Assembly: GCA_964348415.1 (NCBI GenBank)
Contig: CAYGCR010000004.1
Location: 21,651-85,650, forward strand
Length of the DNA stretch: 64,000 nt
Direction of reading: 5' to 3'
DNA from: an uncultured Ignavibacteria bacterium
Lineage (GTDB): Bacteria > Zixibacteria > MSB-5A5 > SM1-73
In this document: positions 2,369 through 63,508 of the stretch, piece by piece
Position numbering within the stretch: the first letter of the stretch is position 1
Layout of the letters: each line of letters opens with the position of its first letter
The notes under the pieces: model-generated
Told to the model about the DNA's origin: nothing
Databases searched by the model: none
The model's input: the letters and a program-made list of their open reading frames with translations, nothing else
Program-made: the position numbers and the translations under genes

Positions 2369-3844
2369 TTAACGTGCAAGTAGTTCTTCGATCTTCCCCG
2401 CGACCGTTCCTGCGGCTCCATCGTAATTGGCCATTACCGCTACCGTATAACCGCTGTCCAGATACATATCCAGCTTGGCATTGATGCCAGGCGCTCCACC
2501 GCCATGCCCCACGATGCGGTGGCCGTTTACGTTTCGATCCTGAAACAGATAGGCGTACATGCTTTCAGGGCCCATGTGCGCCTTGCCAGTAGTGAGGGTG
2601 TCGAAGGATTCCCTGCTGATAAGCTTGTTGCTGCGCAGGGCAATATCGAACCTTAGCAGGTCTTCTACCGTAGAGAACCCGCCTCCGGCTGGACCGCCTT
2701 TGACAACGTGCATGAAAAGGTTATTGCGCCACGCGCCGCCTGGGCTGCGGCTTCCGTCATAGTCTATCTTGGTATAACCGATGGCTAGATTCGGCACCGG
2801 CGTATCCATCTCGTAGCAATCGGTGTTGATCATTCCGGCGGGCTGGTAAATGTGCTCCCTGATATAATCATAATAGTCCTGCCCGGTGACCTTTTCGATG
2901 ATCATGCCCAGGACGATGGGGCCGGAATTGCTGTAATGAAAATCAGTCCCCGGCTCAAAGAGCAGGCTGTCATCGAAGATCAACTCCGCCAGTTGGCCGA
3001 CGGTCTTGATCTCCCACCAGTGGGCGTCAAACACCTCGTCCCAGTAATCCTGCATCCCCGAGGTGTGAGTAAGCAGGTGGTGAATGGTCACCTTTTCTGC
3101 AATCTCCGGTTGCGGCAGGTCAGGTAGATATTTCCCTACGGGGTCGTTGAGAGAGACTTTCCCTTGTTCCACTAGCTGCATGACGGCCACCCCGGTGAAC
3201 ATTTTGTTCATCGATCCTAAGTTGAACTTGGTGTCCAGCCGGTTGGGGATGTTATATCGCTTGCTGGCTAATCCATGTACGCGGGTGTAGAATGGCTTTC
3301 CATCTTTAGCGATCAGGACCGTTCCGGAGAATCGGTCTTTGGATACCAAGTTATCCAGGTAACGATCGAGGAAATCGACTATCTGCTCCTGCGTCAGATC
3401 ACCTTCCGGCGCCTCAAATCCTGGTTCCTCTCCCGGTCGGATAGAAAGCATATCCAGCTTATGCGGAGGAAGAGTATCGGCCTGTACCCTTAGCATCACC
3501 CACTCAATGGGGCCGCTGGGTCTCTCAGCCTTCATCAGCCCGGAGATGGAGTAGTTACTTGAGTGCTCGATGCGGTGAAGAATAAAGCCGCCCACGTCGG
3601 AGTAGACCTGTTTGAACATGTTCAAGCGGTTTTCAAACTTTCCTTCGCGCTCCTTCCAGTGGTTGTTGATGAAATCGGTCCACTCTTTCTCTTCACCGGA
3701 GTTGAACGCCTCAATAAGGCGAACTAACAACTTGCCTGCAGGCGTGTCTGGTATCTCAGGCGGCGCCTGCTGGGCCCACGATGGAAAGGCCAGGGCACAT
3801 ACCAAGATAAGCGGAACAATCTTCCAGCGCACTCCGTTCTGCAT
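2369..3844 (-). CDS. Secreted serine hydrolase of the beta-lactamase/PBP (class C-like) family with an extra N-terminal domain.
   Basis: It has a signal peptide and an S-x-x-K motif (GSMNKMF) in a beta-lactamase-like fold context (..LLTHTSG..). Confidence 0.75.
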   Translation of the reverse strand: MQNGVRWKIVPLILVCALAFPSWAQQAPPEIPDTPAGKLLVRLIEAFNSGEEKEWTDFINNHWKEREGKFENRLNMFKQVYSDVGGFILHRIEHSSNYSISGLMKAERPSGPIEWVMLRVQADTLPPHKLDMLSIRPGEEPGFEAPEGDLTQEQIVDFLDRYLDNLVSKDRFSGTVLIAKDGKPFYTRVHGLASKRYNIPNRLDTKFNLGSMNKMFTGVAVMQLVEQGKVSLNDPVGKYLPDLPQPEIAEKVTIHHLLTHTSGMQDYWDEVFDAHWWEIKTVGQLAELIFDDSLLFEPGTDFHYSNSGPIVLGMIIEKVTGQDYYDYIREHIYQPAGMINTDCYEMDTPVPNLAIGYTKIDYDGSRSPGGAWRNNLFMHVVKGGPAGGGFSTVEDLLRFDIALRSNKLISRESFDTLTTGKAHMGPESMYAYLFQDRNVNGHRIVGHGGGAPGINAKLDMYLDSGYTVAVMANYDGAAGTVAGKIEELLAR

Positions 3845-5800: not shown

Positions 5801-6007
5801 CTACTCGCTGACTCTCTTGACGCCGATAGCCTGAGGACCCTTCTTGCCCTTGACAATACTAAATTCCAGGTGGTCTCCCTCCTGTAATTCATCGAAGTCC
5901 ACGTCCTGTACTTCTGAGCGATGAAAAAATACCTCCCTTCCATCCTCCGCGGAGATGAATCCAAATCCGCGTTCTCTCATTATCCGCTTTACCGTTCCCT
6001 TGGACAT
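5801..6007 (-). CDS. Cold-shock protein (CspA family).
   Basis: The motifs GFGFI and VFFHRS are present in a protein of about 68 aa. A long AT-rich 5' leader (6008-6400) is typical for csp genes. Confidence 0.9.
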   Translation of the reverse strand: MSKGTVKRIMRERGFGFISAEDGREVFFHRSEVQDVDFDELQEGDHLEFSIVKGKKGPQAIGVKRVSE

Positions 6008-6786: not shown

Positions 6787-9588
6787 TCAGAGTTCTTCCA
6801 ATCGCTTCTTGGCATCTGTCAACTGCGGCAGGTCTTCATCTGCATCCTCCCATATTTCGATAAATTTCTGGAAATGTTGCCTGCTCTTCTTGTCTGTGCC
6901 TTTTTTCTCGTAGAGCAGACCAAGTAGATAATGAGTTTGTGCATAGCTGGGATTAGTTTTAAGCACAGCTTCAAATTGTTCTACCGCGGCATCCCACTCC
7001 CCCATTTTGTAATGGGCTTCTCCCAGGGTATTAATAAAAAATGCGCGGTCCAATATAGGGATGCTGGCTGCTTTGTTGAAGTTTTCCAGTGCCCTTTGGT
7101 GTAGGCCTCTGCTGAGCCAGAACTCGCCCAGAAGGTGATAATAATATACCTTTGGCTCGTCAGCCTCCGTTTTTTTCATCAGCTCACTGATCGCCAGGGT
7201 CTCGATTTCAGCCTGGCTGAACATTGTCTTCTTAATCAATGCTAACCCCAGCATCCAATGGGCCTGTGGCATCTTGGGGTCGAGTCTCAAAGCCTGGCGA
7301 GATTCCTGAACAGCCTCCGTGTAGTCATTCTTCAGGTACTTGAGCTTACCCAATAGAAAGTGAGCGTCCGCTTTCTCAGATTCACTAGTGGATAAGGCAA
7401 GATATCTTTCATAAGAACGCAGCGCTTCGGCATACCTCCCTTTGGCCAAATAAATGTCTCCCAGGCATGCGTGAGCGTCAACAAAATCGGGTTTTGCTTC
7501 CAAAGACTGCTTTAAACGTGCTAGCGCCTGGTCATAATTGCCAACGATGAGATAGAACTCGCCCAAGCAAAGCAAAGGTAAAGGCTGGTTCGGAGATAAA
7601 TCAACGTGCGTCTTGAACGCCGCCTCGGCTTTGCCCAATTCTCCTTTGCGGAGGTAAGCGTAGCCGAGCACCTTGTAGGTAAAGTCGACGACGCGCGGTT
7701 TCATTCCTTGCGGGTCAAGCTCTAACACCTTCTTGAACTCGGCAATGCCTTCATCGTACATCTTTTTCTTTTGGTAGTACACCATACCCAGGTCGATATG
7801 GGCGCGCACGTTTTCCGGATTCATGCTGGTGATCTTTCTTAAATAGGCCACCGCCAAATCCCAATGTTCCTTAATCAGGGCTTCCAACACAAGGACCTCC
7901 AGCAACTTCTCCTGAGTTGCCCTTGTAGATTGGGTAGCAATTGTCTTCAGCTTTTCACAAACTCTCAGAGCTTTCTCGCTCTCGCCAACGGTATAATACT
8001 GCCGCACCAGAGCATCGTAAGCTTCTATGAAACTGGAATCTAAGGCCACCGCTTTCTGCAGATCGTCGATGGCCTCTTGGTTGTAACCTGCGGAACCAGC
8101 CTCTTTTCCCATGACGAAATACCTGTATGCTTCTAAAGAGGTGGTGGTAAGTTCCGTTATGTTCTTCTGTTCTTGTTGGATCTCCCGGGCAGAAATCTCC
8201 ATGTCTTTTTTGATCCTGTCGGTGAGATCATCCACCAAATGTCCCAGTATGCTATTTTCGCCCTCGCCCGTCTCCGTTTGGGCTGCTATAAGCTTTTTCG
8301 TATCCACGTTGAGCACCTGGGTATTTATCACGAAAGTCTCTCCGCTCTTGGCGAGACTTCCCATAACCATCACACGAGCACCGGCCGATTTGCACAGTTC
8401 AAACCCGACAGAGGCATCGATGATTTCGACATCCCCATAGCCCATCGATTGGAGGAGATCGAACATCCGGGGGAAACTCATGACCTGCAGATACCTCGAC
8501 TGGCTGAGATCTGTGATCAGCATGTCAGCTAATGCCTTGCGCAGGTAGTCGTATTTTTCTTCGTTGGTTTGGTTGTCGAAAAACATCACCCCCACAGAGG
8601 TTTTGGAGATCTCTTCCGGGAAAAATAGTTCATGAACTAGCCTGTATAGCTCCTTCCGCGCGAATAAAACCGCTAACACCGTAGCCACAACCAAAGCCGC
8701 GGCAATGAAGAGCGACAGGTTTTGGAGTCTGTAACCTCTTCTTCCAATCGGGAGTTCCTCGGTTATTGACTCCCCTTTCTTTACCGCCTGTAAATCAGTC
8801 AGCATCTGAGCCATAGTCTGGTATCTCTGGGCAGGGTCCTTTTTCAGAGATTTGTGGATAATCGCATTCAAACCTCTCTGGGCCTCCTTCCTCAATCCAG
8901 TGGCAGGCTTTGGCTCTTCATTCAGAATGCAGTGTATCACCGCCCCGTCATGCTCTCCCCCAAAGGGCAGCTGACCGGTAAGCATTTCATACAAGACAAC
9001 GCCCAGTGACCAGATATCGGTGCGTTGATCCAAGGTCTTTCCACGCGCCTGTTCTGGCGACATGTACGCCACCGTGCCCAGCTTTGTGCCGGTCTGAGTT
9101 ACCTGCGTGACTCCCCTGAGCTTGGCTAAACCGAAGTCCATTATCTTGCCAAGGTTCTCACTGGTGAGCATTATGTTGTCTGACTTGATATCACGGTGAA
9201 CGATACCTTTTTGGTGAGCTTTGGATAATCCTTCCGCTATCTGAATGGTCAGATCCAGCATCTTACTCGAATCCCAACCTTGAATCTGTCCCTCCTTGAT
9301 CAGCTGTTTTAGGGACTTGCCTTCGACGTACTCCATGGAGATGAAACATTCACCTTCTACTTCATCGATTTCATAGATTGTGGCTATATTGGGATGATTT
9401 AGTGCTGAGGCGGCTTTGGCTTCACGGACGAATCTTGTCCTGGCTTCTTCATCACACAGCAGATGCTTTGATAGGAACTTGAGGGCCACGACCCGATCCA
9501 ACTTGGTGTCCCTGGCTTTATACACCACCCCCATTCCGCCGCGACCCAGCTGCTCCAATATCCTGTAGTGGGAAACAGTTCTGTCCAT
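6787..9588 (-). CDS. Membrane-anchored Ser/Thr protein kinase with C-terminal TPR repeats.
   Basis: The N-terminus has Hanks-kinase motifs (GRGGMGVVYKA, HRDIKSDN, DFGLAK). A transmembrane segment follows. There are more than eight TPR-like repeats. Confidence 0.85.
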   Translation of the reverse strand: MDRTVSHYRILEQLGRGGMGVVYKARDTKLDRVVALKFLSKHLLCDEEARTRFVREAKAASALNHPNIATIYEIDEVEGECFISMEYVEGKSLKQLIKEGQIQGWDSSKMLDLTIQIAEGLSKAHQKGIVHRDIKSDNIMLTSENLGKIMDFGLAKLRGVTQVTQTGTKLGTVAYMSPEQARGKTLDQRTDIWSLGVVLYEMLTGQLPFGGEHDGAVIHCILNEEPKPATGLRKEAQRGLNAIIHKSLKKDPAQRYQTMAQMLTDLQAVKKGESITEELPIGRRGYRLQNLSLFIAAALVVATVLAVLFARKELYRLVHELFFPEEISKTSVGVMFFDNQTNEEKYDYLRKALADMLITDLSQSRYLQVMSFPRMFDLLQSMGYGDVEIIDASVGFELCKSAGARVMVMGSLAKSGETFVINTQVLNVDTKKLIAAQTETGEGENSILGHLVDDLTDRIKKDMEISAREIQQEQKNITELTTTSLEAYRYFVMGKEAGSAGYNQEAIDDLQKAVALDSSFIEAYDALVRQYYTVGESEKALRVCEKLKTIATQSTRATQEKLLEVLVLEALIKEHWDLAVAYLRKITSMNPENVRAHIDLGMVYYQKKKMYDEGIAEFKKVLELDPQGMKPRVVDFTYKVLGYAYLRKGELGKAEAAFKTHVDLSPNQPLPLLCLGEFYLIVGNYDQALARLKQSLEAKPDFVDAHACLGDIYLAKGRYAEALRSYERYLALSTSESEKADAHFLLGKLKYLKNDYTEAVQESRQALRLDPKMPQAHWMLGLALIKKTMFSQAEIETLAISELMKKTEADEPKVYYYHLLGEFWLSRGLHQRALENFNKAASIPILDRAFFINTLGEAHYKMGEWDAAVEQFEAVLKTNPSYAQTHYLLGLLYEKKGTDKKSRQHFQKFIEIWEDADEDLPQLTDAKKRLEEL

Positions 9589-27007: not shown

Positions 27008-27676
27008 ATGAAAATTGGAAGCTTCTCTGAACAAGACGTGCTGAAGTTGGCTAAGAAGGCATACACTGAAGGAGACGCAGGATTTGAAATCAAACCGAAC
27101 AAATGTGCCCTCTTAGTTATTGACATGCAAGATGAGTTCGTCAAACCTCATTGGTCTCCTGGTTGGGTGCCGGAAGCGACAAAGCGAGTTCCCCGAATTA
27201 AGACGCTAATTGAACACTGCAGGAGTAAGAATATCCCGGTAATCTACACAGTCTACTCAAACACACATAATTACCTGGACCGTCCGAAAACCCTAAAATT
27301 CATGCCACTGCTATATTCTGAACTGGATATTGATTTCTCGATATTCTTTGTAAACGGGCAAGTTTGGCACGAACTTGCTCCTCGGGAGGATGAGATAGTA
27401 ATCAAGAAGTCGTCTTACGGAGCATTTTATGACACACCTTTGGAGACAATTCTAAAGAATAGGGAAAAAGACACGGTGATAATATGTGGAACGATTACCA
27501 ACTGTTGCTGCGGCACAACAGCACGACAGGCATATGAAAGGAGCTTCAAAGTAATCTTCGGAAGCGATGTAACGGCGCCTGATGATCCGGAAACGCAGGA
27601 ACCGGAATTGAAAGTCTTAAGGAAAGGTTTTGCCAGGGTCCTGACGGCAGAAGAAATAATCAAGGCGCTAAGTTGA
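27008..27676 (+). CDS. Isochorismatase-family cysteine hydrolase (copy 1).
   Basis: The motifs LLVIDMQDEF and ICGTITNCCCGTTAR (catalytic Cys region) are present. A near-identical paralogue lies at 31792..32460. Confidence 0.8.
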   Translation: MKIGSFSEQDVLKLAKKAYTEGDAGFEIKPNKCALLVIDMQDEFVKPHWSPGWVPEATKRVPRIKTLIEHCRSKNIPVIYTVYSNTHNYLDRPKTLKFMPLLYSELDIDFSIFFVNGQVWHELAPREDEIVIKKSSYGAFYDTPLETILKNREKDTVIICGTITNCCCGTTARQAYERSFKVIFGSDVTAPDDPETQEPELKVLRKGFARVLTAEEIIKALS

Positions 27677-27685
27677 ATTTTCTTA

Positions 27686-27958
27686 TTGTTCTGTCGGGAG
27701 CTGCTTCTGACAGAAAGATGTCAGGAGCACGGGGCTCCTGACCTACTAGCTTTAATGGAAATCGTCTTGCCGTATGTATGTAAAGGCTATGTAAGTAAAA
27801 CAATGAGATTTGTTGAAGATTGGTTAAGAGAGAATTGGTGGGAAATCAAGAGGATATTTCTTGACACGATTATTCCCGAATATAATGGTCGGTTTTACGA
27901 GAAAATGGGGACAAAAAGATTGGTGAAGGTAAACGCATATTTCAAGATTTGCAACTAA
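27686..27958 (+). CDS. Hypothetical small protein. It is doubtful, because the start lies inside a REP element.
   Basis: Only an ORF is seen. It may start later, at MRFVEDW. Confidence 0.2.
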   Translation: MFCRELLLTERCQEHGAPDLLALMEIVLPYVCKGYVSKTMRFVEDWLRENWWEIKRIFLDTIIPEYNGRFYEKMGTKRLVKVNAYFKICN

Positions 27959-28837: not shown

Positions 28838-28990
28838 TCAGGTGCCCTGAGCACCTGACAAATGAAGGTCTCAGAGCACGATTCTCCTGACCTACTGCTA
28901 AGTTGAATTTTCTTATTGTTCTGTCGGCAGCTACTCCTGACAGAAAGACATGAGGAGCTCGGGGCTCCTGGCCTACTGGCTGGTGCGGGT
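28838..28990. repeat. Cluster of REP family-2 hairpins plus a remnant of the isochorismatase 3' end (gctaagttgaattttcttattgttctgtcgg).
   Basis: A 30-nt string identical to 27657-27690 recurs at 28893-28922. Confidence 0.5.
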
Positions 28991-30414: not shown

Positions 30415-30485
30415 TCGCACTGGCGCGTGACCCGACAGCCGAGCAAGCAGGTGGCAGGTCACACCCGTAGGGCAAGACCTCGCAT
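30415..30485. repeat. Copy of the REP family-1 element.
   Basis: The sequence gcgtgacccgacag...caggtcacacccgtagggcaagacc is present. Confidence 0.45.
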
Positions 30486-30497
30486 AACTTTGAGTGG

Positions 30498-33654: not shown

Positions 33655-33735
33655 CCCCAGGTGGCTGGTGTGACCCGACAGCTGACTAACCAGGTGTTAG
33701 GTGACGCCCGTTGGGCAAGACCTGACACGACCTCA
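33655..33735. repeat. Copy of the REP family-1 element.
   Basis: The sequence ggtgtgacccgacagctgac...gacgcccgttgggcaagacctgacacgacc is present. Confidence 0.5.
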
Positions 33736-35861: not shown

Positions 35862-35940
35862 GCGAGTGTGAGTCGACAACCGAGCAGTCAGCTGTCAGGT
35901 CGCACCCGTAGGGGAAGACCTGACACAACCTGCAAAGGTA
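35862..35940. repeat. Copy of the REP family-1 element.
   Basis: The sequence cagctgtcaggtcgcacccgtaggggaagacctgacacaacctg is present. Confidence 0.5.
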
Positions 35941-52908: not shown

Positions 52909-53823
52909 ATGGGTCAGGAAAACTCGTCGGAGAACTGGACGCTAACGCGGGTGCCCGGCGTATTGGTGGGGCATTGGACTGATGAGGCCAAAAGCACCGG
53001 CTGCACTGTGCTTCTTTTCCCGGATGGAGTACGCTGCGGAGCAGTACAGCTTGGCTCAGCGTCAGGCACGCGGCAGATGGGAGTGTTTGATCCGGCTCAT
53101 ATCTCGGGTAAGGTGCACGGAATGTGTCTTTCCGGCGGCTCGGCTTTCGGCTTGAGTACCGCAGATGGTGTGGTCGAATTCCTGGAGTCAAAAGGCATTG
53201 GTTTTGACTCCGGGTTTGGCAAGGTGCCGATTGTTCCGGCGGCGATTATTTTTGATCTGACTACGGCCAAGACCAGGCCAAATGCAGAATCAGGGCGATT
53301 GGCCGCTGAAGCGGCAAGCTCTGAGCCGGTGCAGCAGGGGCGGGTTGGGGCAGGCGCCGGCGCGACTGTGGCCAAGTGGGGCGGTGGGCGAATTCCCGGA
53401 GGTTTAGGTAGTTCGGCTCAGGATGTCGGTGACTACGTCGTTGGGGCGTTAGCCGTAGTGAATGCTGCAGGCTCGATTAGAGACCCGGAAACAGGAAAAT
53501 GGGTTGCAGGTGACGGCAAGGCACATACGGAGCCTCCAAAGATTGGTGCCGACTGGGCAGGCAACACCACCTTGGTTTGCGTAGTAACTAACGCTCCTCT
53601 TGACAGTGTGCAGCTAATCGTTCTCGCCCGCATGGCCAGCGCCGGCATTGCCAGAACCATATACCCGGCTTTCACGCCGTTTGATGGAGATGCGGTTTTT
53701 GCGTTTTCAACTGGAATTGGGGAAGAAGTAGACCGCACCAAACTGAGTCACGTGGGTAGTGTAGCCGCGCAATCAGTGGCCAAGTCGATATCACGTGCTG
53801 TCGGCGAGCTACGCAAAGTGTAA
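52909..53823 (+). CDS. P1/S58-family peptidase (DmpA / L-aminopeptidase D-Ala-esterase-like, Ntn-hydrolase).
   Basis: It shows full-length similarity to DmpA/ArgJ-like proteins (GVLVGHWTD, GSASGTR, ..VVTNAPLD..). Confidence 0.6.
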   Translation: MGQENSSENWTLTRVPGVLVGHWTDEAKSTGCTVLLFPDGVRCGAVQLGSASGTRQMGVFDPAHISGKVHGMCLSGGSAFGLSTADGVVEFLESKGIGFDSGFGKVPIVPAAIIFDLTTAKTRPNAESGRLAAEAASSEPVQQGRVGAGAGATVAKWGGGRIPGGLGSSAQDVGDYVVGALAVVNAAGSIRDPETGKWVAGDGKAHTEPPKIGADWAGNTTLVCVVTNAPLDSVQLIVLARMASAGIARTIYPAFTPFDGDAVFAFSTGIGEEVDRTKLSHVGSVAAQSVAKSISRAVGELRKV

Positions 53824-53854
53824 GCGCGAGCCAAGAAAGAGGAATATCAGGGTC

Positions 53855-54682
53855 ATGAGCAAGACAGGAGAAGGAAAAGGGCCAAAGAAAAGGATTACGC
53901 AACAGGAGCTGCAGCGAAAGTTGCAGGAGTCACTCAAAAGGGTGACACCAGGAGACATGCAGACGCTCAACCAGGTGTTATTCCAACACCTCAAGTTCTA
54001 TGCGGATAACTACGACGCCTTAGACTCTGAGGCTAAGAGACGGCTTGATGATGCGATGAGGGGGATTCAGACTGACTTACCTCAGGTTCTGGAAAAGGTC
54101 CCGGATAGTAAAGATAAGAGAGTTCTGAAACGCTTGCATCGCGGCATGCTCGGACAGCGCGTGATGGTTGATCTATTGTTAGAGGAGTTGGGCACCGCAT
54201 CAACGTTGGAGGACGATAATAGTGCGGAGTCCCAGAGACTGCTCATCGAGGAATTGCAGAAGGTCACTGATTTCTTTTGCGATATATGTGATAACACATT
54301 GCGTGGTCCTGCCACTTTCGGGCAGATCAGCCTTTTAGGGCTGTGCGTAACTGAACTGATGGTAGGGCTACACCTAGCGCGACACTATTACACGAATCAA
54401 GCATATTCCCACATAAGGACTGTAATCGAACATGTGGACAAGATCGAGCTGTTCAGGCGGGAACCAAAGTGGGCTGACCTATGGTGCAGCGGTGATGATG
54501 TGGCAATTTCGAAAGAGCTTTCGCCGATGAAGGTTAGGATGAAGCTGGGGAGACACAAGTATGACGCTGTGTACGGTTTCTTCAGTGGGCTTGGGCCACA
54601 TGGCAGCTTTCAGGCGGCACAAGCTAGGACATACCGAAGTCTTGAGCAGTCTTCCAAGGGGAATCTTCAAATCCGTCAGTAG
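53855..54682 (+). CDS. Hypothetical protein.
   Basis: It is an ORF of 275 aa with no recognisable motifs. The ORF is open from 53795. Confidence 0.4.
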   Translation: MSKTGEGKGPKKRITQQELQRKLQESLKRVTPGDMQTLNQVLFQHLKFYADNYDALDSEAKRRLDDAMRGIQTDLPQVLEKVPDSKDKRVLKRLHRGMLGQRVMVDLLLEELGTASTLEDDNSAESQRLLIEELQKVTDFFCDICDNTLRGPATFGQISLLGLCVTELMVGLHLARHYYTNQAYSHIRTVIEHVDKIELFRREPKWADLWCSGDDVAISKELSPMKVRMKLGRHKYDAVYGFFSGLGPHGSFQAAQARTYRSLEQSSKGNLQIRQ

Positions 54683-54718
54683 TTAGGGGGTTGCCCGGCA
54701 GAGCACCATATCATTTTC

Positions 54719-54946
54719 GTGTATGGCGGGATGTTCTATGCCCTTCATTTGTTGTTGTTGCAGGTGGTCAAGAGCTTTGGTCATTTTCTGAATCCTGAGG
54801 AAACGGAGGAGGTCCTGCAGCAAAACGCAAGCAAAACAGCCGAGTATCTGCGGCGCTACTTCTTGCCCTGGGCAAAGGATAATAGCTTGGATGTTATAGA
54901 ATTGGAACAACGTTTGGAAAGCAACCGGTGGGGGAAATCAGAATGA
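54719..54946 (+). CDS. Hypothetical small protein.
   Basis: Only an ORF is seen. It could be a fragment. Confidence 0.2.
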   Translation: MYGGMFYALHLLLLQVVKSFGHFLNPEETEEVLQQNASKTAEYLRRYFLPWAKDNSLDVIELEQRLESNRWGKSE

Positions 54947-55267
54947 TCCTTGAAGATTTCGCTTTCTCTTTGAAATTCCTCAGTAATAAGAATCTATTGG
55001 TTTAGTTCCTTGTTCGCAGCGAAATCTTCAACCACCCTTCGGGGTGGTTGGCATACAGAAGTTTGGATTCTCTCGTATCATTTTTGGTGAACGGTGGTCT
55101 CGGGTCCAAGTATCGGGTTCAGGTCATTGCCCCGAGGCGTCAGGACTGCCATCGCGCAATAATCCAGCCTGCTGGAGCGCCAACCTGTGTGAGACACCGT
55201 TCACCTCTATTTATGTGCGCTGCCAGGTTCTGTTTACCCCGGTGGGTGGGTGTGGCCTGGCAACTTC

Positions 55268-55358
55268 GAAGTTGTAGCCGCAATCTTTAGATTGCACAAA
55301 TGTCAGGAATTGAGCAGATTTTGATCGTAGGCTGAAGCCTGCGGCTACAAAAACCCCA
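55268..55358 (+). ncRNA. Conserved structured element (candidate cis-regulatory RNA or MITE) upstream of a secreted-protease gene. Its second copy is at 61333-61421.
   Basis: The two copies are 80-90% identical. The element has nested inverted repeats (gtagccgca...tgcggctac, gcaatct-N2-agattgc, aggctNaagcct) and ends in ctacaaaaacccc. Confidence 0.4.
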
Positions 55359-55478
55359 CTTTCGGTTCATCCTCCTCCCATACCGGAAACTATAGACGGC
55401 AGTCGATTTGTATTTGACGGAACCTAAGTGCAGACATATCGTAGAATACTATGAAACTCAAAAGCGAGGAGGTTTGAC

Positions 55479-57335
55479 ATGTTTTCCAAAAGATGCTTAG
55501 CTTTGGCCATCGCTGCCATCATGCTTGTTGGTGGTTGGCAAGGCCTGAATGCTCAGACTCTGGAGGATGTTCTGAGCAAGTATGCGGAGGCTCTGGGCGG
55601 GAGAGAAGCTCTTGAAGCCCTGAGGAACTCTGTGGCGGAGTATGAGATCACAGTTCCCGGTGGGCTAACCGGCACGCAAAAATCCTATTTCAAGTATCCC
55701 GACAAGCTCCGGTCCGAAATGGATTTCAAGATCATGCAAAGCCTGACCGTTTTTGACGGCGAGAAAGGATGGACTAAAGATCCCAACGGCCAGGTGCGTG
55801 AATTGGCCGGCGCAGAACTGGAGAACGTTCAAAGGGAACTGTACTTCAGTCTCTACGCACACCTGTTCCCGGAAAGAGCTAATGGAGAGGTCAAGTACCT
55901 GGGACGAGAGGAGGCAGACGGCATCAACTACTATGTTATCCAGATAACTCCTGAGGGAGTTGAACCGGTGAAGATGTACATAAACCCCGACACGTACCTG
56001 GTGGACAGAACGGTTATGCAGGAGGATATCATCGAGGTGACCAGTTACTATTCGGATTACCTTGATTTCGCCGGAATCAAGATGGCTACCTCCTATCGTA
56101 TGAGCACAGGCGATACCGCCTACGATATGAGATCAACTGTGACCAGCATCGAATTCAATAAACCGCTGCCCGACGAGCTGTTCACTATGCCTGTGGCAGC
56201 GGAGAAGGATTACAGGTTTCCAGCCGGAAAGAACTTTGTCGAGATTGCATTTGTGCTGAACAGCAATCATATCCATTTTCCGGTCGTGATCGGTGACGCA
56301 AAGCCGCTCAACTTCATCCTGGATACCGGCGCGGGCGGGCCGGTGGTAGACACGGACGTCGCCAAGAGCTTGGGTCTGGAACTGCTCGGCAAGATCGAGG
56401 CTCGCGGCGCAGGTGAAGGAACCCAGGAGGCTAATCTCATAAGCATGCCCAATGTAAAGTTCGCCGACCTGGTCATAGACAGCGTCTCCGGCGCAACCAT
56501 AAGTCTTAGTCCCTTGAACAAGTACGAGGGAATGCCGGTTGAAGGGATATTGGGCTATGACATCTTCAGCAGGTTCGTGGTTAAGATCGATTATTCGAAT
56601 CAGAAGCTGACTCTGTACGAGCCTTCAGCTTTCAAATATGAGGGCAAGGGCGAGATTCTACCCATCACGCTTGAGAGAAATCATCCCCACGTTAAAGCCG
56701 TCGTGGACGGGCAATACGAGGGGACTTTCGTAGTCGACTGCGGAGCCAGAAGCAGCCTGGCTCTTCACACGCCTTTTGTGGAGAAGCATGATCTGCTGGC
56801 AAAGACCGGCAAGAAGATCGAGGTATTTGCCGGGGTAGGTGTTGGGGGGAAGGTGATGGGCAAGGTCACCCGGGTCAAGAATATACAGATAGGCAGCTTC
56901 AAAATACCTGCTCCTCTCACAACCTTAGCTTCGGCTGAGGCGGGCGCGCTTGCCAGCGAGAGGATAGACGGTAACATCGGCGGCGGCATACTGAAAAGGT
57001 TTACGGTCATCTTCGATTATACCAATAGCCGGATGATCCTGGAGCCCAACGCCGATTTCGGCTACGAAGACAACCTCGACATGGCCGGTTTATGGTTGAC
57101 CAAGGAGAATGATACGACCAGGGTCGATTTTGTGATCGAGGATTCACCTGCCGGCAGGGCTGGACTCAAGGAGGGGGATGTGGTGCTGAAGATAAACGGC
57201 CAGTCCAGCAAAGACCTTCTCCTGGGGGATATGCGCGATATGTTAAAAGCCGGGGAAGGGAAGAAGGTGAGCTTGATAATCAGCTCGGAAGGGAAAGAGA
57301 AAAACATAGATCTTAAGTTAGAGAAGTTGATTTGA
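55479..57335 (+). CDS. Secreted tandem retropepsin-like aspartyl protease with a C-terminal PDZ domain.
   Basis: It has a signal peptide. It carries DTGAG (..NFILDTGAGGPVV..) and a second DCGA lobe, plus a PDZ (..DFVIEDSPAGRAGLKEGDVVLKINGQ..). Confidence 0.6.
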   Translation: MFSKRCLALAIAAIMLVGGWQGLNAQTLEDVLSKYAEALGGREALEALRNSVAEYEITVPGGLTGTQKSYFKYPDKLRSEMDFKIMQSLTVFDGEKGWTKDPNGQVRELAGAELENVQRELYFSLYAHLFPERANGEVKYLGREEADGINYYVIQITPEGVEPVKMYINPDTYLVDRTVMQEDIIEVTSYYSDYLDFAGIKMATSYRMSTGDTAYDMRSTVTSIEFNKPLPDELFTMPVAAEKDYRFPAGKNFVEIAFVLNSNHIHFPVVIGDAKPLNFILDTGAGGPVVDTDVAKSLGLELLGKIEARGAGEGTQEANLISMPNVKFADLVIDSVSGATISLSPLNKYEGMPVEGILGYDIFSRFVVKIDYSNQKLTLYEPSAFKYEGKGEILPITLERNHPHVKAVVDGQYEGTFVVDCGARSSLALHTPFVEKHDLLAKTGKKIEVFAGVGVGGKVMGKVTRVKNIQIGSFKIPAPLTTLASAEAGALASERIDGNIGGGILKRFTVIFDYTNSRMILEPNADFGYEDNLDMAGLWLTKENDTTRVDFVIEDSPAGRAGLKEGDVVLKINGQSSKDLLLGDMRDMLKAGEGKKVSLIISSEGKEKNIDLKLEKLI

Positions 57336-57496
57336 GCGCGCTCGATGGTTTAACGCCGCGGGCGGTCGACGGTCCGAGTTTAGGTCGAGTCTTGCCCCCC
57401 TCACGGGCAAACTTTATCGGTCAAGCATGTCCTTCAAGGACTGCTTGACACAAGAAACTGGCAACGACCTTTCGAGATGGTCGAGCTACCGACTTA

Positions 57497-57524
57497 TATC
57501 GAATGTGGCGGGATTTCATTCCCG
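57497..57524. terminator. Perfect 11-bp stem hairpin (atgtggcggga-tttcat-tcccgccacat) between convergent genes. It is probably a bidirectional terminator.
   Basis: The inverted repeat is read from the sequence. It lies between the 55479..57335(+) gene and csp(-). Confidence 0.45.
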
Positions 57525-57599
57525 CCACATTAAGTCTCCGAGACCAAGGGAGGCCCCGGAAAGACCAACGATATAGTTTAGAGACTTGTTTTCTCTAGA

Positions 57600-57803
57600 T
57601 TATATCTTTTGGACATTTTTTGCCTGAGGTCCTTTTTGCCCCTGTGCTTCTTCGAAGCTAACTCCTTCACCTTCACGAAGGGTCTTGTATCCTTCTTCCT
57701 GTATTTCAGAGAAGTGTACAAACAGGTCGGCTCCTCCGTCTTCCGGAGTGATGAATCCATACCCTTTGGATTCATTGAACCATTTTACCGTACCATGCTT
57801 CAC
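57600..57803 (-). CDS. Cold-shock protein (CspA family).
   Basis: The motifs [12 protein letters not shown] (RNP1) and VFVHFS (RNP2) are present. It has a long structured 5' leader (57804-57990) with an 11-bp hairpin. Confidence 0.9.
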
Positions 57804-58163
57804 AGAATCACCTCCTTTCCGTTATAGAAAAAAGCCACGAAAGTCTCATCAAAATAAGCTTTCGTGGCTGCATAACTTCGAGCTAACAAAAACCTATCTT
57901 AACTTTCCTCTCTGTACTTCGGTATCTATACGCACCATTCTTGTTATTTAAGAAGATTTTCACATAATTATGTCATCGGTTTTGAAACCGTGGACACCTC
58001 TCTTGGGCGTTTTTGCGGGTGTTACCTCGTAGCCGGATGTGCCTTGCACCTAACGCAGGACCGGCCATGTCAAGAGAAAAGGAACCGTCAAGCCTACAAG
58101 TCGTATACAGGAATAGCATGTCTTTATTTTGCGGCATGTACCATATTTCGGGAGTCAGCAGTT

Positions 58164-58934
58164 ATGGTAGAGCTTACACCTACCAAAGCAAACATAGTCA
58201 GACTAGCCAGAGCGTTTAAAGGAAATAAACGGGTTGACCTCTCTATCGATTGTGCGATTGAAGGGCAGATGGGCAAAGCATACGCGGATGATCCGAGAGC
58301 CCCGAAGGCGTTTAAGATACAGGTGGGACCCTTCTTGTATCTGGCAGGGGATGCGAGAAGTCCGGGTGGATATGAGATGATGAGAGAACTCCGGCCTTAT
58401 ACCCTGCTCATGCCGTCGCCTGTTGAATGGATCAATGTGGCAAAAGAGATTCACGGCGAAAGGCTGGTCCCGTTTTTGCGCTATAGTTTCTCGTCAAAGA
58501 ATTTATCGGCTGACCGTCTAAGCGGTTTGCTGGATAGTTCACCATTCAAGGATGCGATAAAGCGCATTGATACGGCCGCTGCCACGGAGGCGCTCGCAGT
58601 GCAGGATGGTGTCTTAGACCTTTCCGCTTTCGATTCGGCGGAAGATTTCCTGGAGCGAGGGATAGGCTTCCGTGTGATGAGCAGCGAGACCATAATGGGG
58701 GTGGCTTATTCCTCGCTGGTTTGCAGCAAAGGCATCGAGGTCAGCATCTTCGTGTTCCCGGAGCATCGAAGAAAAGGAATAGCTACGGCCTTAGCAAGCG
58801 CCTTGTTGAAGTGGGGTCTGGAGCACGGCATGGATCCTCACTGGGATGCAGCCAACCCGGAATCGTGCACCTTAGCCGAGAAGCTGGGGTACGTTCAGAC
58901 AGAAACGTATGACGCTTATTACCTGAGACAATAA
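58164..58934 (+). CDS. GNAT-family acetyltransferase-like protein.
   Basis: The C-terminal GNAT motif ..FVFPEHRRKGIATALASALLKWGLEHG.. is present. The ORF is open from 57990, and the ATG at 58164 has an RBS-like GGGAG. Confidence 0.55.
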   Translation: MVELTPTKANIVRLARAFKGNKRVDLSIDCAIEGQMGKAYADDPRAPKAFKIQVGPFLYLAGDARSPGGYEMMRELRPYTLLMPSPVEWINVAKEIHGERLVPFLRYSFSSKNLSADRLSGLLDSSPFKDAIKRIDTAAATEALAVQDGVLDLSAFDSAEDFLERGIGFRVMSSETIMGVAYSSLVCSKGIEVSIFVFPEHRRKGIATALASALLKWGLEHGMDPHWDAANPESCTLAEKLGYVQTETYDAYYLRQ

Positions 58935-58999
58935 CATTGCCCAGCCTTGATCACTTCAGGCGGCATTCATCCTGCGTAGTCCTTTGAGAAAGGAAAGCT

Positions 59000-59281
59000 A
59001 TGTTACCGGAAAAACAAAAAAAGGCATTTGCCGATTTCTATGATTCGGCCCGGCATAATGACATACTGGAGCCGAAGACAACGCTTTTGATCCACCTGGC
59101 TACGTCCATGGCGGTTAACTGTCATCCCTGAATGGCGAGTTACTTTGGCGTGGCCAAAGAACAGGGGATAACCGACGACGAAATCGGTGCTGTGCAGTCT
59201 ATAGTAATGGCCGTTTCTGCAGGCAGAGTTCAGGCTCAGTTTCGCGAAGCTCGAGTCGCAAGCAGAAAGCAGAACAAGTAA
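59000..59281 (+). CDS. AhpD-like / carboxymuconolactone-decarboxylase-family protein. It is a candidate selenoprotein with an in-frame TGA (59129..59131) in a C-x-x-U motif.
   Basis: An RBS (AAAGGAAAG) precedes the ATG at 59000. The translation ..TLLIHLATSMAVNCHP[TGA]MASYFGVAKEQGITDDEIGAVQSIVMAVSAG.. matches the CMD/AhpD core (LxxLxSxxNGCxYCxxxH..A...G..deel) on both sides of the TGA. The TGA sits at the position of the second Cys of CxxC. A 7-bp-stem hairpin ctttggc-gtg-gccaaag starts 11 nt downstream of the TGA. Confidence 0.55.
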
Positions 59282-59539
59282 AACACAGCGCTCAAATAAT
59301 TTGTACTCAACACTGCGGCTCTTCACACAGAGTCGACCGCAGACCGTCGGCACATCGTTTCATGATCTACCAGATCTCGAGTGCTCAGGCGGGTGTGATC
59401 TGATGCCTGATCATGGGACCGAGTACTACTTGAACTCTCACGTTCTCCAAACGGAACTATTCACGTCGGCAACAAGTATAACCATATAAGGTTCTAGTAC
59501 CATGTCACTAGTGCTATTAAATGCTCACGGAGGGGAAAC

Positions 59540-61279
59540 ATGAAAGCAATACTGTTGTCGGCTCTTGCCGCTATTTTGCCGCTCGCAGTCTCTATCTTCG
59601 CTGCCGAGATACACGATGCAGCAGAGCAAGGCGATCTTGCCGCAGTGAAGAGGCTGGTGTCAGAGAGTCCTGATCTGCTGGATGCCAGCAATGAGAGAGG
59701 GAGTACGCCGCTGCACAACGCATCATTCGGGGGCCATCTGGAGGTCGTCAAGTTCCTGCTGGAAAAAGGAGCGGACATCGAAGCCGTCAATGGCAGAGGT
59801 TTCACGCCGCTACACTTTGCAGCTTATAGAGGCCACCGGGACGTTGTACAGCTCCTGCTCGACAAGGGCGGGAATATTAACGCAATGAATGAACAGATGG
59901 ACATGACCGCTCTTGATTTCGCTTTCCTCAAGGAAATCCAGGCACGTAAGCTGGATATCGCCCCCTTGCTGATTGAGAAGGGAGCAGAGTTCGAAGTAAA
60001 CAAGAAGAACCAGTTCGGGTACACCACCCTGGATATGACCATAGTGTTCGGGCATACCGAGGGAGCCGAGTACTTGCTGGGATTTGGACCGGATATAAGC
60101 AGTATGAGAGAGAAGGACGGGAAGACTCCCCTGATCAATGCCATACTCCGTGGCCGCCCGGAAATCGCCATGCTGCTGATAAAAAAAGACGCTGATGTCA
60201 ATGCGCCGGATAACGAGGGACAACCTCCGGTCTATTGGGCAGTGAAGAAAGGTCTTCCTGATATCCTTCAGACTCTCCTGGCCAAAGGCGCAAACACAGA
60301 TTTTGTGGATAAAGACAACGGAAGAACCATGCTTCATATAGCTGCTCTGCAAGGTCACCTGGGTGTGATGGAAATACTGTTGGATAGCAAAACGGATGTC
60401 AATACAAAAGACAACGGTGGCAAGACCCCGCTCTTTTATGCGGGCAAGTACGGTCACAAGATGGTTGCTGAGCTTCTGGCCAAACACGGCGCCAAGAAAA
60501 CCGGAGACGTGGTGGAAAACTATGGTAAGTCGCCTCATCTGACACGCAACTTCAAGGACCGCGAGGCGGTTGTCTGGTATCTGGCTCACCGGGGTTGGGC
60601 GGTCAAGACAGCGAACCATGTGCTCATATTCGATGCCGAGGAATTCGGAGTGACGCGGCCGACCGAACCATCGCTTGCCAACGGCTTCCTAACGACCCAT
60701 GAACTGGCTGATCAGGACATCTTTGCCATCTACACGTGCTATCACGGGGAACCGGGCGAACCTGCGTATGTCCACACAATAGAGGACTCAATTGCCAGCA
60801 TCACCTACGTTCACAATGAGGGTGATCGCTGGAGAGGATCAGAGGGGACCGTCTACATGAAGCCGAGAGAGGAGAAGAAGCTTGACGATATGAGGATTGT
60901 CTCGGCATTGACACCGGGAAACATGCCAATGATGGCATATCTATGCGATCTGGATGGATTGACCATCTTCTATTCGGGCTTCCGGCCGCGGGACATCGAG
61001 AAATACAAAGAGGAGATCGATTTCCTTACCCAATACACCACCAAAGTAGATCTTGCCTTCCTCCCCATAGCCGAAGCCGACGCGGAGGATAGTGCATCAA
61101 TATATCTCTGCGAGAAACTCCACCCCAGGTACGTTTTTCCGCTGGATCCCGATCGCCGCGAACATCTTTACCCTGATGTGGCCAAAATGACTGCGGAGAA
61201 AGGCTTCAAGACCGAAGTCTTGTGCGCCGAAAATCCAGGCGATCACTTCATCATCATGCCGGGCTCCAAAACAAGGTAA
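59540..61279 (+). CDS. Secreted ankyrin-repeat protein with a C-terminal MBL-fold-like (Lactamase_B_3-type) domain.
   Basis: It has a signal peptide and at least seven ANK repeats (..GSTPLHNASFGGHLEVVKFLLEKGADI.., ..GFTPLHFAAYRGHRDVV..). The C-terminal approximately 250 aa form a globular domain. Confidence 0.7.
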   Translation: MKAILLSALAAILPLAVSIFAAEIHDAAEQGDLAAVKRLVSESPDLLDASNERGSTPLHNASFGGHLEVVKFLLEKGADIEAVNGRGFTPLHFAAYRGHRDVVQLLLDKGGNINAMNEQMDMTALDFAFLKEIQARKLDIAPLLIEKGAEFEVNKKNQFGYTTLDMTIVFGHTEGAEYLLGFGPDISSMREKDGKTPLINAILRGRPEIAMLLIKKDADVNAPDNEGQPPVYWAVKKGLPDILQTLLAKGANTDFVDKDNGRTMLHIAALQGHLGVMEILLDSKTDVNTKDNGGKTPLFYAGKYGHKMVAELLAKHGAKKTGDVVENYGKSPHLTRNFKDREAVVWYLAHRGWAVKTANHVLIFDAEEFGVTRPTEPSLANGFLTTHELADQDIFAIYTCYHGEPGEPAYVHTIEDSIASITYVHNEGDRWRGSEGTVYMKPREEKKLDDMRIVSALTPGNMPMMAYLCDLDGLTIFYSGFRPRDIEKYKEEIDFLTQYTTKVDLAFLPIAEADAEDSASIYLCEKLHPRYVFPLDPDRREHLYPDVAKMTAEKGFKTEVLCAENPGDHFIIMPGSKTR

Positions 61280-61332
61280 CCGATCCCATGCCCCCGATGT
61301 GACGTCCCGCAGATAAAACATTGACATGCTCT

Positions 61333-61421
61333 AAGTTGTAGCCGCAATCTTCAGATTGCGTAAACGTAGGGAATTCGGCAGAGAATCATCGCAGGCTAAA
61401 GCCTGCGGCTACAAAAACCCC
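61333..61421 (+). ncRNA. Second copy of the conserved structured element seen at 55268-55358. It lies upstream of a secreted-protein gene.
   Basis: See the 55268 copy. The same nested inverted repeats are present, with sequence changes that keep the hairpins. Confidence 0.4.
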
Positions 61422-61633
61422 TTTTTTCCTTTCTGCCAGGTCTTGTCCAGTTAGGGGGCTGGCGGATTTGGGATTCTCGACACGCTATGGTTGCGTGTTC
61501 CGCGCAACATTCGATACTACCTCCACTACGTACTTCCGCGAAGGGAACATTCCAAGTGATGGCACGTACACTTGGGTAGCGTTTCGCTATCTGGTAACCC
61601 GAACCTTCTGGATTCATGGTTAAGGAGGACGAG

Positions 61634-63508
61634 ATGAACCCAAACATCCTGAAGCTAACGGCAGTGTTTTTTCTCTGCCCTTTGCTGTTTATGGCAAGTG
61701 CAGTGGCCCAAGAAGATATCATCGACTTCGAGTCTGATCGTTGGGATGCGACGAATGCGGAGATAGTTCAGCATATGGAAAGAAAGTGTCTTATCGGAAA
61801 CGCCTTCTTAAGGGACGTAGAATTCGAGAACGGCGTCATTGAGGTGGATATTGCGTTTGCAGCGCGTTCACGCTCTTATCCAGGGATCGTATTCCGAATG
61901 GAGTCAGAGGGGAATTATGAGAGGTTTTATATCCGTCCGCACAGATCGCCCTATTACTCCGATGCACTCCAGTATACGCCTGGGTTCAACGGCATCGACG
62001 GCTGGCAGCTGTATAACGGCGAAGGATACACTGCCGCGGCAGATATCCTCCCCGACCAGTGGATTCACCTGACGATGGAAATCTCCGGCAAGCAGGCCAG
62101 GGTTTTCCTGGATGATGCCCCCCAGCCTGCTCTGGCGATAACTGATCTCAAGCGCGGTGTGAGCAAAGGGACCATTGGTCTGATGGGGCCAAGGGACAAG
62201 ACGGCCTACTTTTCGAATTTCAAATATAAAATCGATAACCAGCTGCAATTCGATCCTCCTCCCGAGATTGAAACGCCCCTGGGCATGATCACCGAATGGG
62301 AATTGTCTCAGCCCTACGACTTTACCACGATCGACTTGGAGCGTACGCCGGAGCAGCAAGGCATAACGGACATCACCTGGCAGAAGGTGAAAAGCGATCC
62401 CACCGGTCTGGTAGACATATCGCGCTACACCGGAAGGACCAGCCGAATCGGCGACTGTGTATTTGCGAGAACCACGATTCAATCAGACCGGGATACAGTT
62501 CTGAATCTGAAATTCGGATACAGTGACGCGGTATTCGTATTTATAAACGGCGATCTGATATTCTTCGGCAACAGCGCATACCAGCACAGGGATCCATCTT
62601 TCCTGGGCATCATCGGACTGAATGACGCCGTCTACTTACCATTGAAAAAGGGCGAAAACGAGCTGCTCTTATTGGTTGCGGAGTCATTTGGAGGCTGGGG
62701 ATTCATCTGCCAGGACGGCAATGCCTTCTTCCAGCACGAAAGCCTGACCAAATCATGGGAATTGCCCCGCAAGTTCAGATTTCCGGAATCCGTAGTCTAC
62801 GACAGAAGACGGGGTCTGCTGTACGTCTCCAACTACTTCCTACCAGGGAGAGGATTCATATCAAAGGTCAATCCGAACGGTGAAGTGAAGGAGCTCGAAT
62901 GGATCACCGGTCTGAACCGTCCGGCAGGTTTGTGGATATTCAAAGATAAGCTGTACGCGGTCGACAGAGCCGACCTGATTGAGATAAACGTAGACTCCGA
63001 TTCGATAGAAAACAAATACCCGGTGCCAGGCGCGATGTTCATCAATGACGTTGCTTTTGACTCCGAAGGAAACGCCTACATCACCGATTCCCGGGCCAGT
63101 GCCATTTACAAGTTCACCAACGGCGAATTCGAGGTCTGGCTGCAAGGCAACGAAATCAACGATCCAAACGGATTGCTGGTTGACAGGAACAAGCTGGTCG
63201 TGGGGAACTCCGGCGACGGGTGTTTGAAGGCCGTCGATCTCGAGGACAAGAAGGTCAGCACCATAGTCTGCCTGGGCAAAGGATCCATTATGGACGGAGT
63301 GAGACCGGACGGAAAGGGTAACTACATCGTTTCGGACTTCAATGGGAGAGTTTTCCTTGTTACGCCGTCCGGAAAGAAAACAGAACTTCTTAATACGAAA
63401 ACCCCTCAGCTGTTTTGCGCTGATTTGGAATACATCCCGGAACAGAAGCTGCTGGTTATCCCCACGTTGTACGACAACAGGATTATGACATATAGGTTCA
63501 ACAGGTAG
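61634..63508 (+). CDS. Secreted protein with an N-terminal DUF1080 (concanavalin-like lectin/glucanase fold) domain and a C-terminal NHL/SMP-30-like beta-propeller.
   Basis: A perfect RBS (AAGGAGG) and a signal peptide are present. The N-terminal domain has a DUF1080-like pattern (..GVIEVDIAF..GIVFRMESEGNYERFYIRP..). The C-terminus has repeated beta-propeller blades (..NAYITDSRASAIYKF.., ..NYIVSDFNGRVFLV..). Confidence 0.55.
   Translation: MNPNILKLTAVFFLCPLLFMASAVAQEDIIDFESDRWDATNAEIVQHMERKCLIGNAFLRDVEFENGVIEVDIAFAARSRSYPGIVFRMESEGNYERFYIRPHRSPYYSDALQYTPGFNGIDGWQLYNGEGYTAAADILPDQWIHLTMEISGKQARVFLDDAPQPALAITDLKRGVSKGTIGLMGPRDKTAYFSNFKYKIDNQLQFDPPPEIETPLGMITEWELSQPYDFTTIDLERTPEQQGITDITWQKVKSDPTGLVDISRYTGRTSRIGDCVFARTTIQSDRDTVLNLKFGYSDAVFVFINGDLIFFGNSAYQHRDPSFLGIIGLNDAVYLPLKKGENELLLLVAESFGGWGFICQDGNAFFQHESLTKSWELPRKFRFPESVVYDRRRGLLYVSNYFLPGRGFISKVNPNGEVKELEWITGLNRPAGLWIFKDKLYAVDRADLIEINVDSDSIENKYPVPGAMFINDVAFDSEGNAYITDSRASAIYKFTNGEFEVWLQGNEINDPNGLLVDRNKLVVGNSGDGCLKAVDLEDKKVSTIVCLGKGSIMDGVRPDGKGNYIVSDFNGRVFLVTPSGKKTELLNTKTPQLFCADLEYIPEQKLLVIPTLYDNRIMTYRFNR

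Follow-up and report, generated by a model that had tools for sequence, protein, structure and literature searches.

A palindromic element found twice in an uncultured bacterium is very probably a heterodimer of GTAG-tagged REPs, with matching units flanking RAYT genes in related contigs

The 64,000-nt stretch of DNA analysed here (the window) carries two copies of a compact palindromic element, each of which is very probably a head-to-head heterodimer of GTAG-tagged REPs (REPIN/BIME-type), a non-autonomous kind of mobile DNA linked to a RAYT. Elements of this known kind are small selfish DNAs that a domesticated RAYT transposase spreads. This identification draws on the anatomy of the copies, the family to which they belong, the covariation in the hairpins, the indifference of family members to orientation and the linkage of the units to RAYT genes in related contigs, all of which are seen directly; that the source genome encodes a RAYT of its own, and how the unit is cleaved, are supposed by analogy with other systems. 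On the model of E. coli TnpA_REP and IS200/IS605, the genome would encode, outside the window, a single-copy RAYT (HUH/Y1 transposase) that binds the folded hairpin together with the GTAG foot on single-stranded DNA, cleaves nearby and rejoins the strands, and this cleavage and rejoining may copy or move the doublet into intergenic DNA. The original prediction, made from the window alone, had offered a cis-regulatory RNA, a small RNA gene or a MITE as possible identities. For annotation, a false lead is thereby removed: such sequences are REP/REPIN elements and not riboswitch-like regulators of secreted proteins.

As first described, the window holds two copies of about 90 nt that are 80-90% identical: 75 of 91 nt (82%) agree without gaps, and the 22-nt and 29-nt halves of the element each occur exactly twice in the window, compared with 0.00 matches expected from 100 shuffles. 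The flanks of the two copies are unrelated and the likeness goes no further than the element edges. Run over the 64 kb with filters off, a covariance model made from relatives retrieves both copies and no third one, the next match scoring 9.9 bits (E 2.7). The copies and their parts are:

55268..55358, + strand: copy A, whole REP doublet core including the flanks GAAGTT and AAAAACCCC; covariance-model score 84.9 bits, E 3.7e-19
55274..55296, + strand: REP unit A1, GTAG head (55274-55277) and hairpin CGCAATC-TTTA-GATTGCA, with a C.A mismatch as outermost pair
55297..55325, + strand: 29-nt spacer of copy A, CAAATGTCAGGAATTGAGCAGATTTTGAT, of the length most frequent in the family
55326..55348, - strand: REP unit A2, inverted, reading GTAGCCGCAGGCTTCAGCCTACG on the - strand, with one G.T wobble in the stem
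55349..55357, + strand: conserved 3' flank of copy A, AAAAACCCC; AAAAA[C/A] is usual in the family
61332..61422, + strand: copy B, whole REP doublet core; covariance-model score 88.3 bits, E 5e-20
61338..61360, + strand: REP unit B1, GTAG head and perfect hairpin CGCAATC-TTCA-GATTGCG
61361..61389, + strand: spacer of copy B, TAAACGTAGGGAATTCGGCAGAGAATCAT, 29 nt, akin to the family consensus TAAGT..TTGGAATTCAACA...CGATTT
61390..61412, - strand: REP unit B2, inverted, reading GTAGCCGCAGGCTTTAGCCTGCG on the - strand
61413..61421, + strand: conserved 3' flank of copy B, AAAAACCCC

Read on the + strand, the doublet consists of a (G/T)AAGTT flank, GTAG-CCGC, hairpin 1 (CGCAATC-TTYA-GATTGCR in the two copies), the 29-nt spacer, hairpin 2 (CGYAGGC-TRAA-GCCTGCG), G-CTAC and the AAAAACCCC flank; its termini are GTTGTAGCC...GGCTACAAAAAC, and the outer stem of both copies is GUUGUAGC/GCUACAA(C). 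The 3' half is GTAGCCGCAGGCTTYAGCCTRCG when read on the - strand and the 5' half is GTAGCCGCAATCTTYAGATTGCR, i.e. a single unit type in inverted arrangement, composed of a GTAG(CCGC) foot and a 7-bp hairpin with a 4-nt loop, with the GTAG feet pointing outward. All four units in the window start with GTAGCCGC followed by the hairpin. The nested inverted repeats of the original prediction, an outer stem and two hairpins, are present, and as + strand RNA the copies fold with z-scores of -3.9 and -4.2, the stems of copy A being weakened by two transitions (A at 55296, T at 55328). The substitutions between the copies that had been taken as hairpin-preserving prove to be changes in the loops (TTTA/TTCA and TGAA/TAAA), none of which makes a compensatory pair.

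Both copies lie inside one 6-kb stretch and share the strand of their flanking genes. Copy A is 586 nt away from the previous long ORF and 121 nt before the start of a protease gene, and copy B starts 54 nt past the stop codon (61279) of an ankyrin-repeat gene, with a propeller gene about 200 nt beyond it. The two downstream genes encode signal-peptide-like N-termini and have GGAGG ribosome-binding sites, as had been noted; in the second, the propeller is recognized by Pfam (an NHL/SGL-type beta-propeller) while the DUF1080 domain named together with it goes undetected. Directly upstream of copy A, some 240 nt (55025-55267) hold no convincing ORF; they match the corresponding DNA of the relative L158 at 93% identity, where the protease gene reaches 90% and an S58 peptidase gene 84%. 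This stretch folds strongly on the - strand (z -4.9, with the long hairpin GGTGAACGGTGGTCTC...GAGACACCGTTCACC), has no Rfam match, and could be another palindromic element or a new ncRNA. A second GTAG-headed REP family, built from GTRGGTCAGGWGC plus a hairpin (e.g. GTAGGTCAGGAGC-CCCGT-GCTCCTG), gives 8 matches in the window against 0.3 expected (26812, 27734, 28833, 28883, 28964, 33111, 34981 and 49502), so that the genome has at least two REP families. Other dispersed repeats, several with palindromes, are one of 66 nt in three copies (30425-30490, 33668-33733 and 35866-35931) and one of 85 nt in two (27667-27751 and 28897-28981).

The element belongs to a widely distributed family. A scan of 185,579 species genomes with the pattern GTAGCCGC-N45-75-GCGGCTACAAAAAC yields 36 loci from at least six phyla, among them Zixibacteria, Ignavibacteria, Nitrospirota/Thermodesulfovibrionia, Desulfobaccales, Gemmataceae, Verrucomicrobiota and others. 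The matches in Pedobacter and Deminuibacter fall inside long ORFs and look like chance, and those in Pseudomonas look like the REPs of that genus itself. As this pattern fixed the outer 8+14 nt, the conservation of the feet in the 36 genome loci is partly by construction, whereas the metagenome scan fixed one unit only (GTAGCCGCAATCTTYAGATTGCG) and gives at least 119 contigs. In these, the 5' flank GA(A/G)GTT and the 3' flank AAAAA[C/A] recur although the pattern did not require them; among the 101 dimers of the matches listed, which were not chosen for their flank, the 3' flank is AAAAAC in 52 and AAAAAA in 18. The inner parts, left free by the genome pattern, follow a common plan with different stems (AATC/GATT, AAAC/GTTT, AGGC/GCCT, GGGC/GCCC and CCCG/CGGG, for example). 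Genome and metagenome matches listed together comprise at least 297 units with the hairpin in 151 sources, and the unit pairs among them are head-to-head in 102 cases, tail-to-tail in 11 and head-to-tail in 10. The spacer has its modal length of 29 nt in 57 of these 102 head-to-head dimers, and 92 of 95 oriented head-to-head pairs among the matches listed are heterodimers, most commonly of AATCT with AGACT. One Zixibacteria MAG carries at least five doublet copies on five contigs; judging from such relatives, the copy number in the source genome may be high, although the window of 64 kb itself holds only two copies.

Several family members show further structure. L108 (1487-2128) has a clustered or amplified REP array, in which a 137-nt unit is repeated 4.7 times in tandem with 96% identity between the repeats; every repeat holds a single window-type REP unit together with two further hairpins whose loops are CTTTAG/CTAAAG. 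In relatives from Zixibacteria and Ignavibacteria (L002, L009, L020, L032 and others) the doublet is surrounded by outer inverted arms, CCCCTCTCC-N4-GAGG-TGTGTCA-TAAT... and ...TGACACACCCTC-N4-GGAGAGGGG, which bring the element to about 170-190 nt; in the window copies such arms are degenerate and not significantly detectable. One orthologous intergenic site between DprA and ObgE is represented in three genomes (L006 1328-1407, L021 7174-7253 and L008 3470-3546), where all but hairpin 2 is conserved: two genomes have CCCCGCCAGAGGCGGGG here and the third has CACCCGTACGGGTG, which points to replacement of the whole hairpin module, perhaps by gene conversion between copies.

The hairpins covary across the family. 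In an alignment of 25 sequences, 93% of the pair cells hold standard pairs and eight pairs show double-sided changes; the covariation score is reached by none of 500 shuffles, RNAalifold agrees, and when the partner columns are slid by 1-3 positions pairing falls to 27-40%. The loops of the two units are mutually reverse complements (TTYA in unit 1, TRAA in unit 2), and wobble-compatible mismatches are split 6 vs 6 between the strands among the matches listed, numbers that are small but give no hint of selection acting on one transcript strand. Reverse-complement loops and wobble pairs free of strand bias indicate a symmetry at the level of DNA, and such loops fit one protein that reads one hairpin on either DNA strand.

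Of the hairpin covariation and the fixed placement relative to genes that further copies had been expected to reveal, only the former is found. Among the matches listed, 51 dimers have clear neighbours, and their arrangement is +E+ in 24, -E- in 13, convergent (+E-) in 8 and divergent (-E+) in 6, so that in 21 of 51 (41%) the element is followed by a gene on the opposite strand. The doublets are intergenic and sit amid unrelated housekeeping genes (ObgE, DprA, phosphopentomutase, class V FBPase, PstS/PstC), to which the recurrent ORFs of about 330-390 aa beside the copies also belong. For the family as a whole there is no association with secreted-protein genes, and the placement of the two window copies before such genes is incidental. 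That the neighbours are unrelated housekeeping genes also rejects an association of the IS110 bridge-RNA, integrase, TnpB or retron type, for which a conserved partner gene beside family members was sought and none was found. CRISPR or tracrRNA-like and omega-RNA readings were likewise rejected, as there are no arrays and no adjacent effector genes.

These contexts bear on the proposal of a cis-regulatory 5'-UTR RNA, a riboswitch or leader acting on the downstream secreted-protein genes. The position of both copies a short distance 5' of signal-peptide genes with strong ribosome-binding sites on the same strand, the stable fold and the covariation in the family would all suit such a regulator, but the mixed orientation in some 50 family members and the unrelated housekeeping neighbours speak against it, and reverse-complement loops have no rationale in an RNA read from one strand. 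Rfam 15 gives no match at gathering score anywhere in the window, and only chance-level matches at E <= 10 around the element and its upstream region. The sole promoter-like site in the promoter scan, 55414-55442, is located downstream of copy A, and a terminator scan finds no intrinsic-terminator signature at either copy.

The corresponding loci in close relatives point in the same direction. Protease homologues at 65-76% identity are labelled Zixibacteria, which makes this phylum the probable source of the window, and nearer ones allow the fate of the element to be followed. In L158, where the protease is 90% identical, copy A is intact in the matching place and an extra copy is found 300 nt further upstream. 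In L159 (protease 87% identical) copy A is without its 3' unit and its foot is mutated to GTAC, and L161/L162 (80% identical) give no covariance-model match at all. Where L159 corresponds to copy B, the 3' unit and all DNA downstream are homologous to the window, and the spacer is the canonical one of the family, while the 5' unit is of a different type (CCCGTACGGG) and the upstream gene is not that of the window; synteny between the window and L159 thus breaks inside copy B. The 100-200 nt from the element to the start codons, including the promoter-like 55414-55442, are conserved in L158, L159 and L161/L162. Since this stretch is conserved while the element decays, the promoters of the downstream genes likely lie 3' of the element. 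With an element half-deleted or absent in relatives that keep the protease upstream region, a cis-regulatory RNA appears extremely improbable. Judged from these comparisons, the element behaves as dispensable, decaying and recombining DNA. Relatives whose protease is 87-100% identical to that of the window have copies, decayed in one of them, and the 80% relative has none. A search for a clean pair of filled and empty sites found none, gene order being rearranged in the relative without the element. Indeed, near both copies (window 53795-61279) the genes stand in a different order from that in L158, L159 and L161: those for the ankyrin, cold-shock, GNAT and propeller proteins have changed places or are absent, and at least one junction falls on an element, copy B. 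The Logan ERR2564004 contig L037, from an independent short-read assembly of the window's own organism, corresponds to window 55266-62304 with 20 differences in 7039 positions; it begins 2 nt 5' of copy A, where the repeat probably broke the assembly. Such repeats may both break short-read assemblies, as in L037, and mark rearrangement junctions, as in copy B compared with L159.

In E. coli, REPs are reported to act as RNA hairpins that stabilise upstream mRNA 3' ends, attenuate read-through or insulate. It is conceivable, although unlikely, that the two window copies, being REP doublets by origin, were exapted as RNA in one of these ways: carried on the 3' end of the upstream transcript or on read-through across the intergenic DNA, they would keep the preceding gene's mRNA stable, dampen read-through or insulate the gene that follows, which would add to the REP-doublet explanation and not exclude a REP origin. 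Both copies are co-oriented with the flanking genes, copy B follows the ankyrin stop codon closely, the RNA folds are stable, the co-directional class of placement is the commonest (24 of 51 among the matches listed), and it is argued in PMC3733652 that many REPs are transcribed. On the other hand, the copies have no intrinsic-terminator signature, the wobble pairs show no strand bias, copy A is distant from the previous long ORF, and in the relative with the 87% identical protease copy A is half-deleted with no sign of compensation.

What decides for REP doublets is that related contigs carry identical units directly beside RAYT genes, a REPtron arrangement. The E. coli RayT (NC_000913) was used as query and recovered a homologue in L035 by phmmer; with the L035 ORF added as query, a second round recovered more homologues in metagenome loci and a fragment in L003. 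The RAYT-like ORFs and the units beside them are:

L100, 7275-7790: RAYT-like ORF with units at 7059(-), 7102(+), 7196(-) and 7851(-)
L147, 192-728: RAYT-like ORF with three units on either side
L124, 3833-4309: RAYT-like ORF with units at 3763(+), 4284(-) and 4383(+)
L156, 128-475: RAYT-like ORF with three units immediately 3'
L154, 5257-5637: RAYT-like ORF with a single unit at 5809(-)
L035, 665-1243: RAYT-like ORF with a doublet 5' and a lone inverted unit 3'

Among the metagenome matches listed, the units flanking the ORFs of L100, L147, L124, L156 and L154 include the exact window-type unit GTAGCCGCAATCTT[T/C]AGATTGCG, while the RAYT loci of L035 and L003 carry a Verrucomicrobia sister-type unit. 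The same five ORFs reach the gathering score of Pfam Y1_Tnp, L156 barely; the L035 ORF gives no Pfam match at E <= 0.01 despite its phmmer match to E. coli RayT. All of the RAYT-like proteins have HUH, WQ and YIxxNP(V/L) motifs, and the only match of the L100 ORF in the PDB at E <= 1 is 4ER8, the E. coli TnpA_REP ('TnpArep'). In the approximately 1.1 Mb of sequence examined, well under one RAYT would be expected by chance. The 64 kb window itself contains no RAYT detectable with E. coli RayT, the L035 ORF or a 9-sequence profile as queries, and a 1.6-kb extension of the source contig past the window holds no copies of the element. The REPtron arrangement is known for GTAG REPs and RAYTs (PMC3733652, PMC6006769).

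The RAYT linkage also weighs on the remaining two of the identities first put forward. An independent small RNA gene would agree with the compact, stable structure and with an TGTCATAAT motif resembling an extended -10 box about 20 nt 5' of the doublet in relatives. That motif, however, belongs to an inverted repeat whose other side is TGACACA and is degenerate in the window copies; moreover, there is neither a terminator nor an Rfam match, orientation is mixed, the element is decayed or missing at orthologous sites, and the element is multicopy with interchangeable hairpin stems and flanking RAYT genes, all of which leaves a small RNA gene with an extremely slim likelihood. The MITE proposal was right in part, as the element does appear to be non-autonomous mobile DNA, but not in the sense of a miniature DDE insertion-sequence derivative. 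Bacterial MITEs (Correia, ERIC, RUP) stem from DDE insertion sequences and have terminal inverted repeats and target-site duplications; the window element resembles them in being small, non-autonomous, palindromic, intergenic and multicopy, and differs in that no target-site duplication or parent insertion sequence is seen. A classical MITE, i.e. a deletion derivative of this kind, or an integron attC site would fit a short, dispersed, palindromic intergenic repeat and, in relatives, the extra outer inverted arms. Yet no target-site duplication abuts the core, the outer boundary being uncertain given the extra arms of relatives, and the only recurrently adjacent transposase is the Y1/HUH RAYT and no DDE enzyme. 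As for attC, no core sites (RYYYAAC...GTTRRRY), cassette array or integrase are found beside the copies, which stand singly between ordinary genes. A MITE or attC identity is therefore very improbable.

Most descriptions of REPIN-RAYT systems present them as lineage-specific and inherited vertically. The units of the present REP family are alike across several phyla, sometimes together with the spacer and outer arms, and a more speculative reading, rather improbable in our estimation, is that a unit/RAYT lineage with GTAGCCGC and the CTTYAG loop moved horizontally between distant phyla (Zixibacteria, Ignavibacteria, Nitrospirota, Desulfobacterota, Planctomycetota and Verrucomicrobiota), its stems being swapped as modules between copies. 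Examples of stem swaps are seen at the orthologous sites of L006 and L008 and between window copy B and L159. The likeness across phyla may alternatively reflect convergence on a foot constrained by the RAYT, or mis-binned MAGs. If true, horizontal spread of unit and RAYT would contradict a strictly vertical, lineage-specific picture, and the multi-phylum spread and apparent swapping of hairpin modules offer a usable test of vertical REPIN-RAYT inheritance.

Compared with known systems, the subterminal hairpins of IS200/IS605 offer an analogy in combining a hairpin with a guide tetranucleotide for a Y1 HUH transposase that acts on single-stranded DNA. Unlike these elements, the doublet is only about 80 nt long with no transposase or TnpB between its two hairpins, and the associated enzyme matches TnpA_REP and no IS200/IS605 structure. 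The E. coli REP/BIME system (PDB 4ER8; PMC3479197, PMC8266576) is closer, sharing the GTAG foot, the hairpin substrate and the Y1/HUH gene flanked by REP pairs; TnpA_REP binds the GTAG foot plus hairpin and needs them for cleavage (PMC3479197, PMC8266576). The E. coli REP stems, however, are long, imperfect and bulged, whereas the present family has short, perfect stems of the kind seen in the 'perfect palindrome' group of PMC8266576, and E. coli RayT is only distantly related to the RAYTs found here (E 1e-7 to 1e-16). The closest counterpart is the head-to-head dimer of GTAG-tagged REPs (Di Nocera, De Gregorio & Rocco 2013, PMC3733652), also named REPIN (Bertels & Rainey 2011, PMC3116915). 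According to PMC3733652, GTAG REPs occur predominantly as head-to-head dimers, with conserved spacers of 20-100 bp and with heterodimers among them; they are located between ORFs that are unidirectional or convergent, and REPs flank the RAYT genes. The present family is like them in having GTAG as the foot of a hairpin of 6-9 bp whose loop is very short (GTAG REPs are characterised by a GTAG or GTRG foot and a stem of 5-13 bp with a short loop, and the window stems have 7 bp and 4-nt loops), in its outward GTAG, in its conserved spacer within 20-100 bp, its heterodimers, its REPtrons and its dispersed intergenic placement with mostly unidirectional or convergent neighbours. It is unlike them in the spread of very similar units over at least six phyla and in the extra outer inverted arms of relatives. 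In the accessible text and supplements of PMC3733652 and in the searchable literature the unit GTAGCCGC + NNNC-TTYA-GNNN-GCG does not appear, nor do Zixibacteria and the other scanned phyla in the accessible part of that GTAG-REP survey. The window unit thus appears to be a so far undescribed unit of the GTAG-tagged REP/REPIN class. For the REP field, this adds a clearly delimited family from uncultured phyla that have been little studied, its REPtrons identified and its traits being heterodimers, a conserved 29-nt spacer and perfect short stems.
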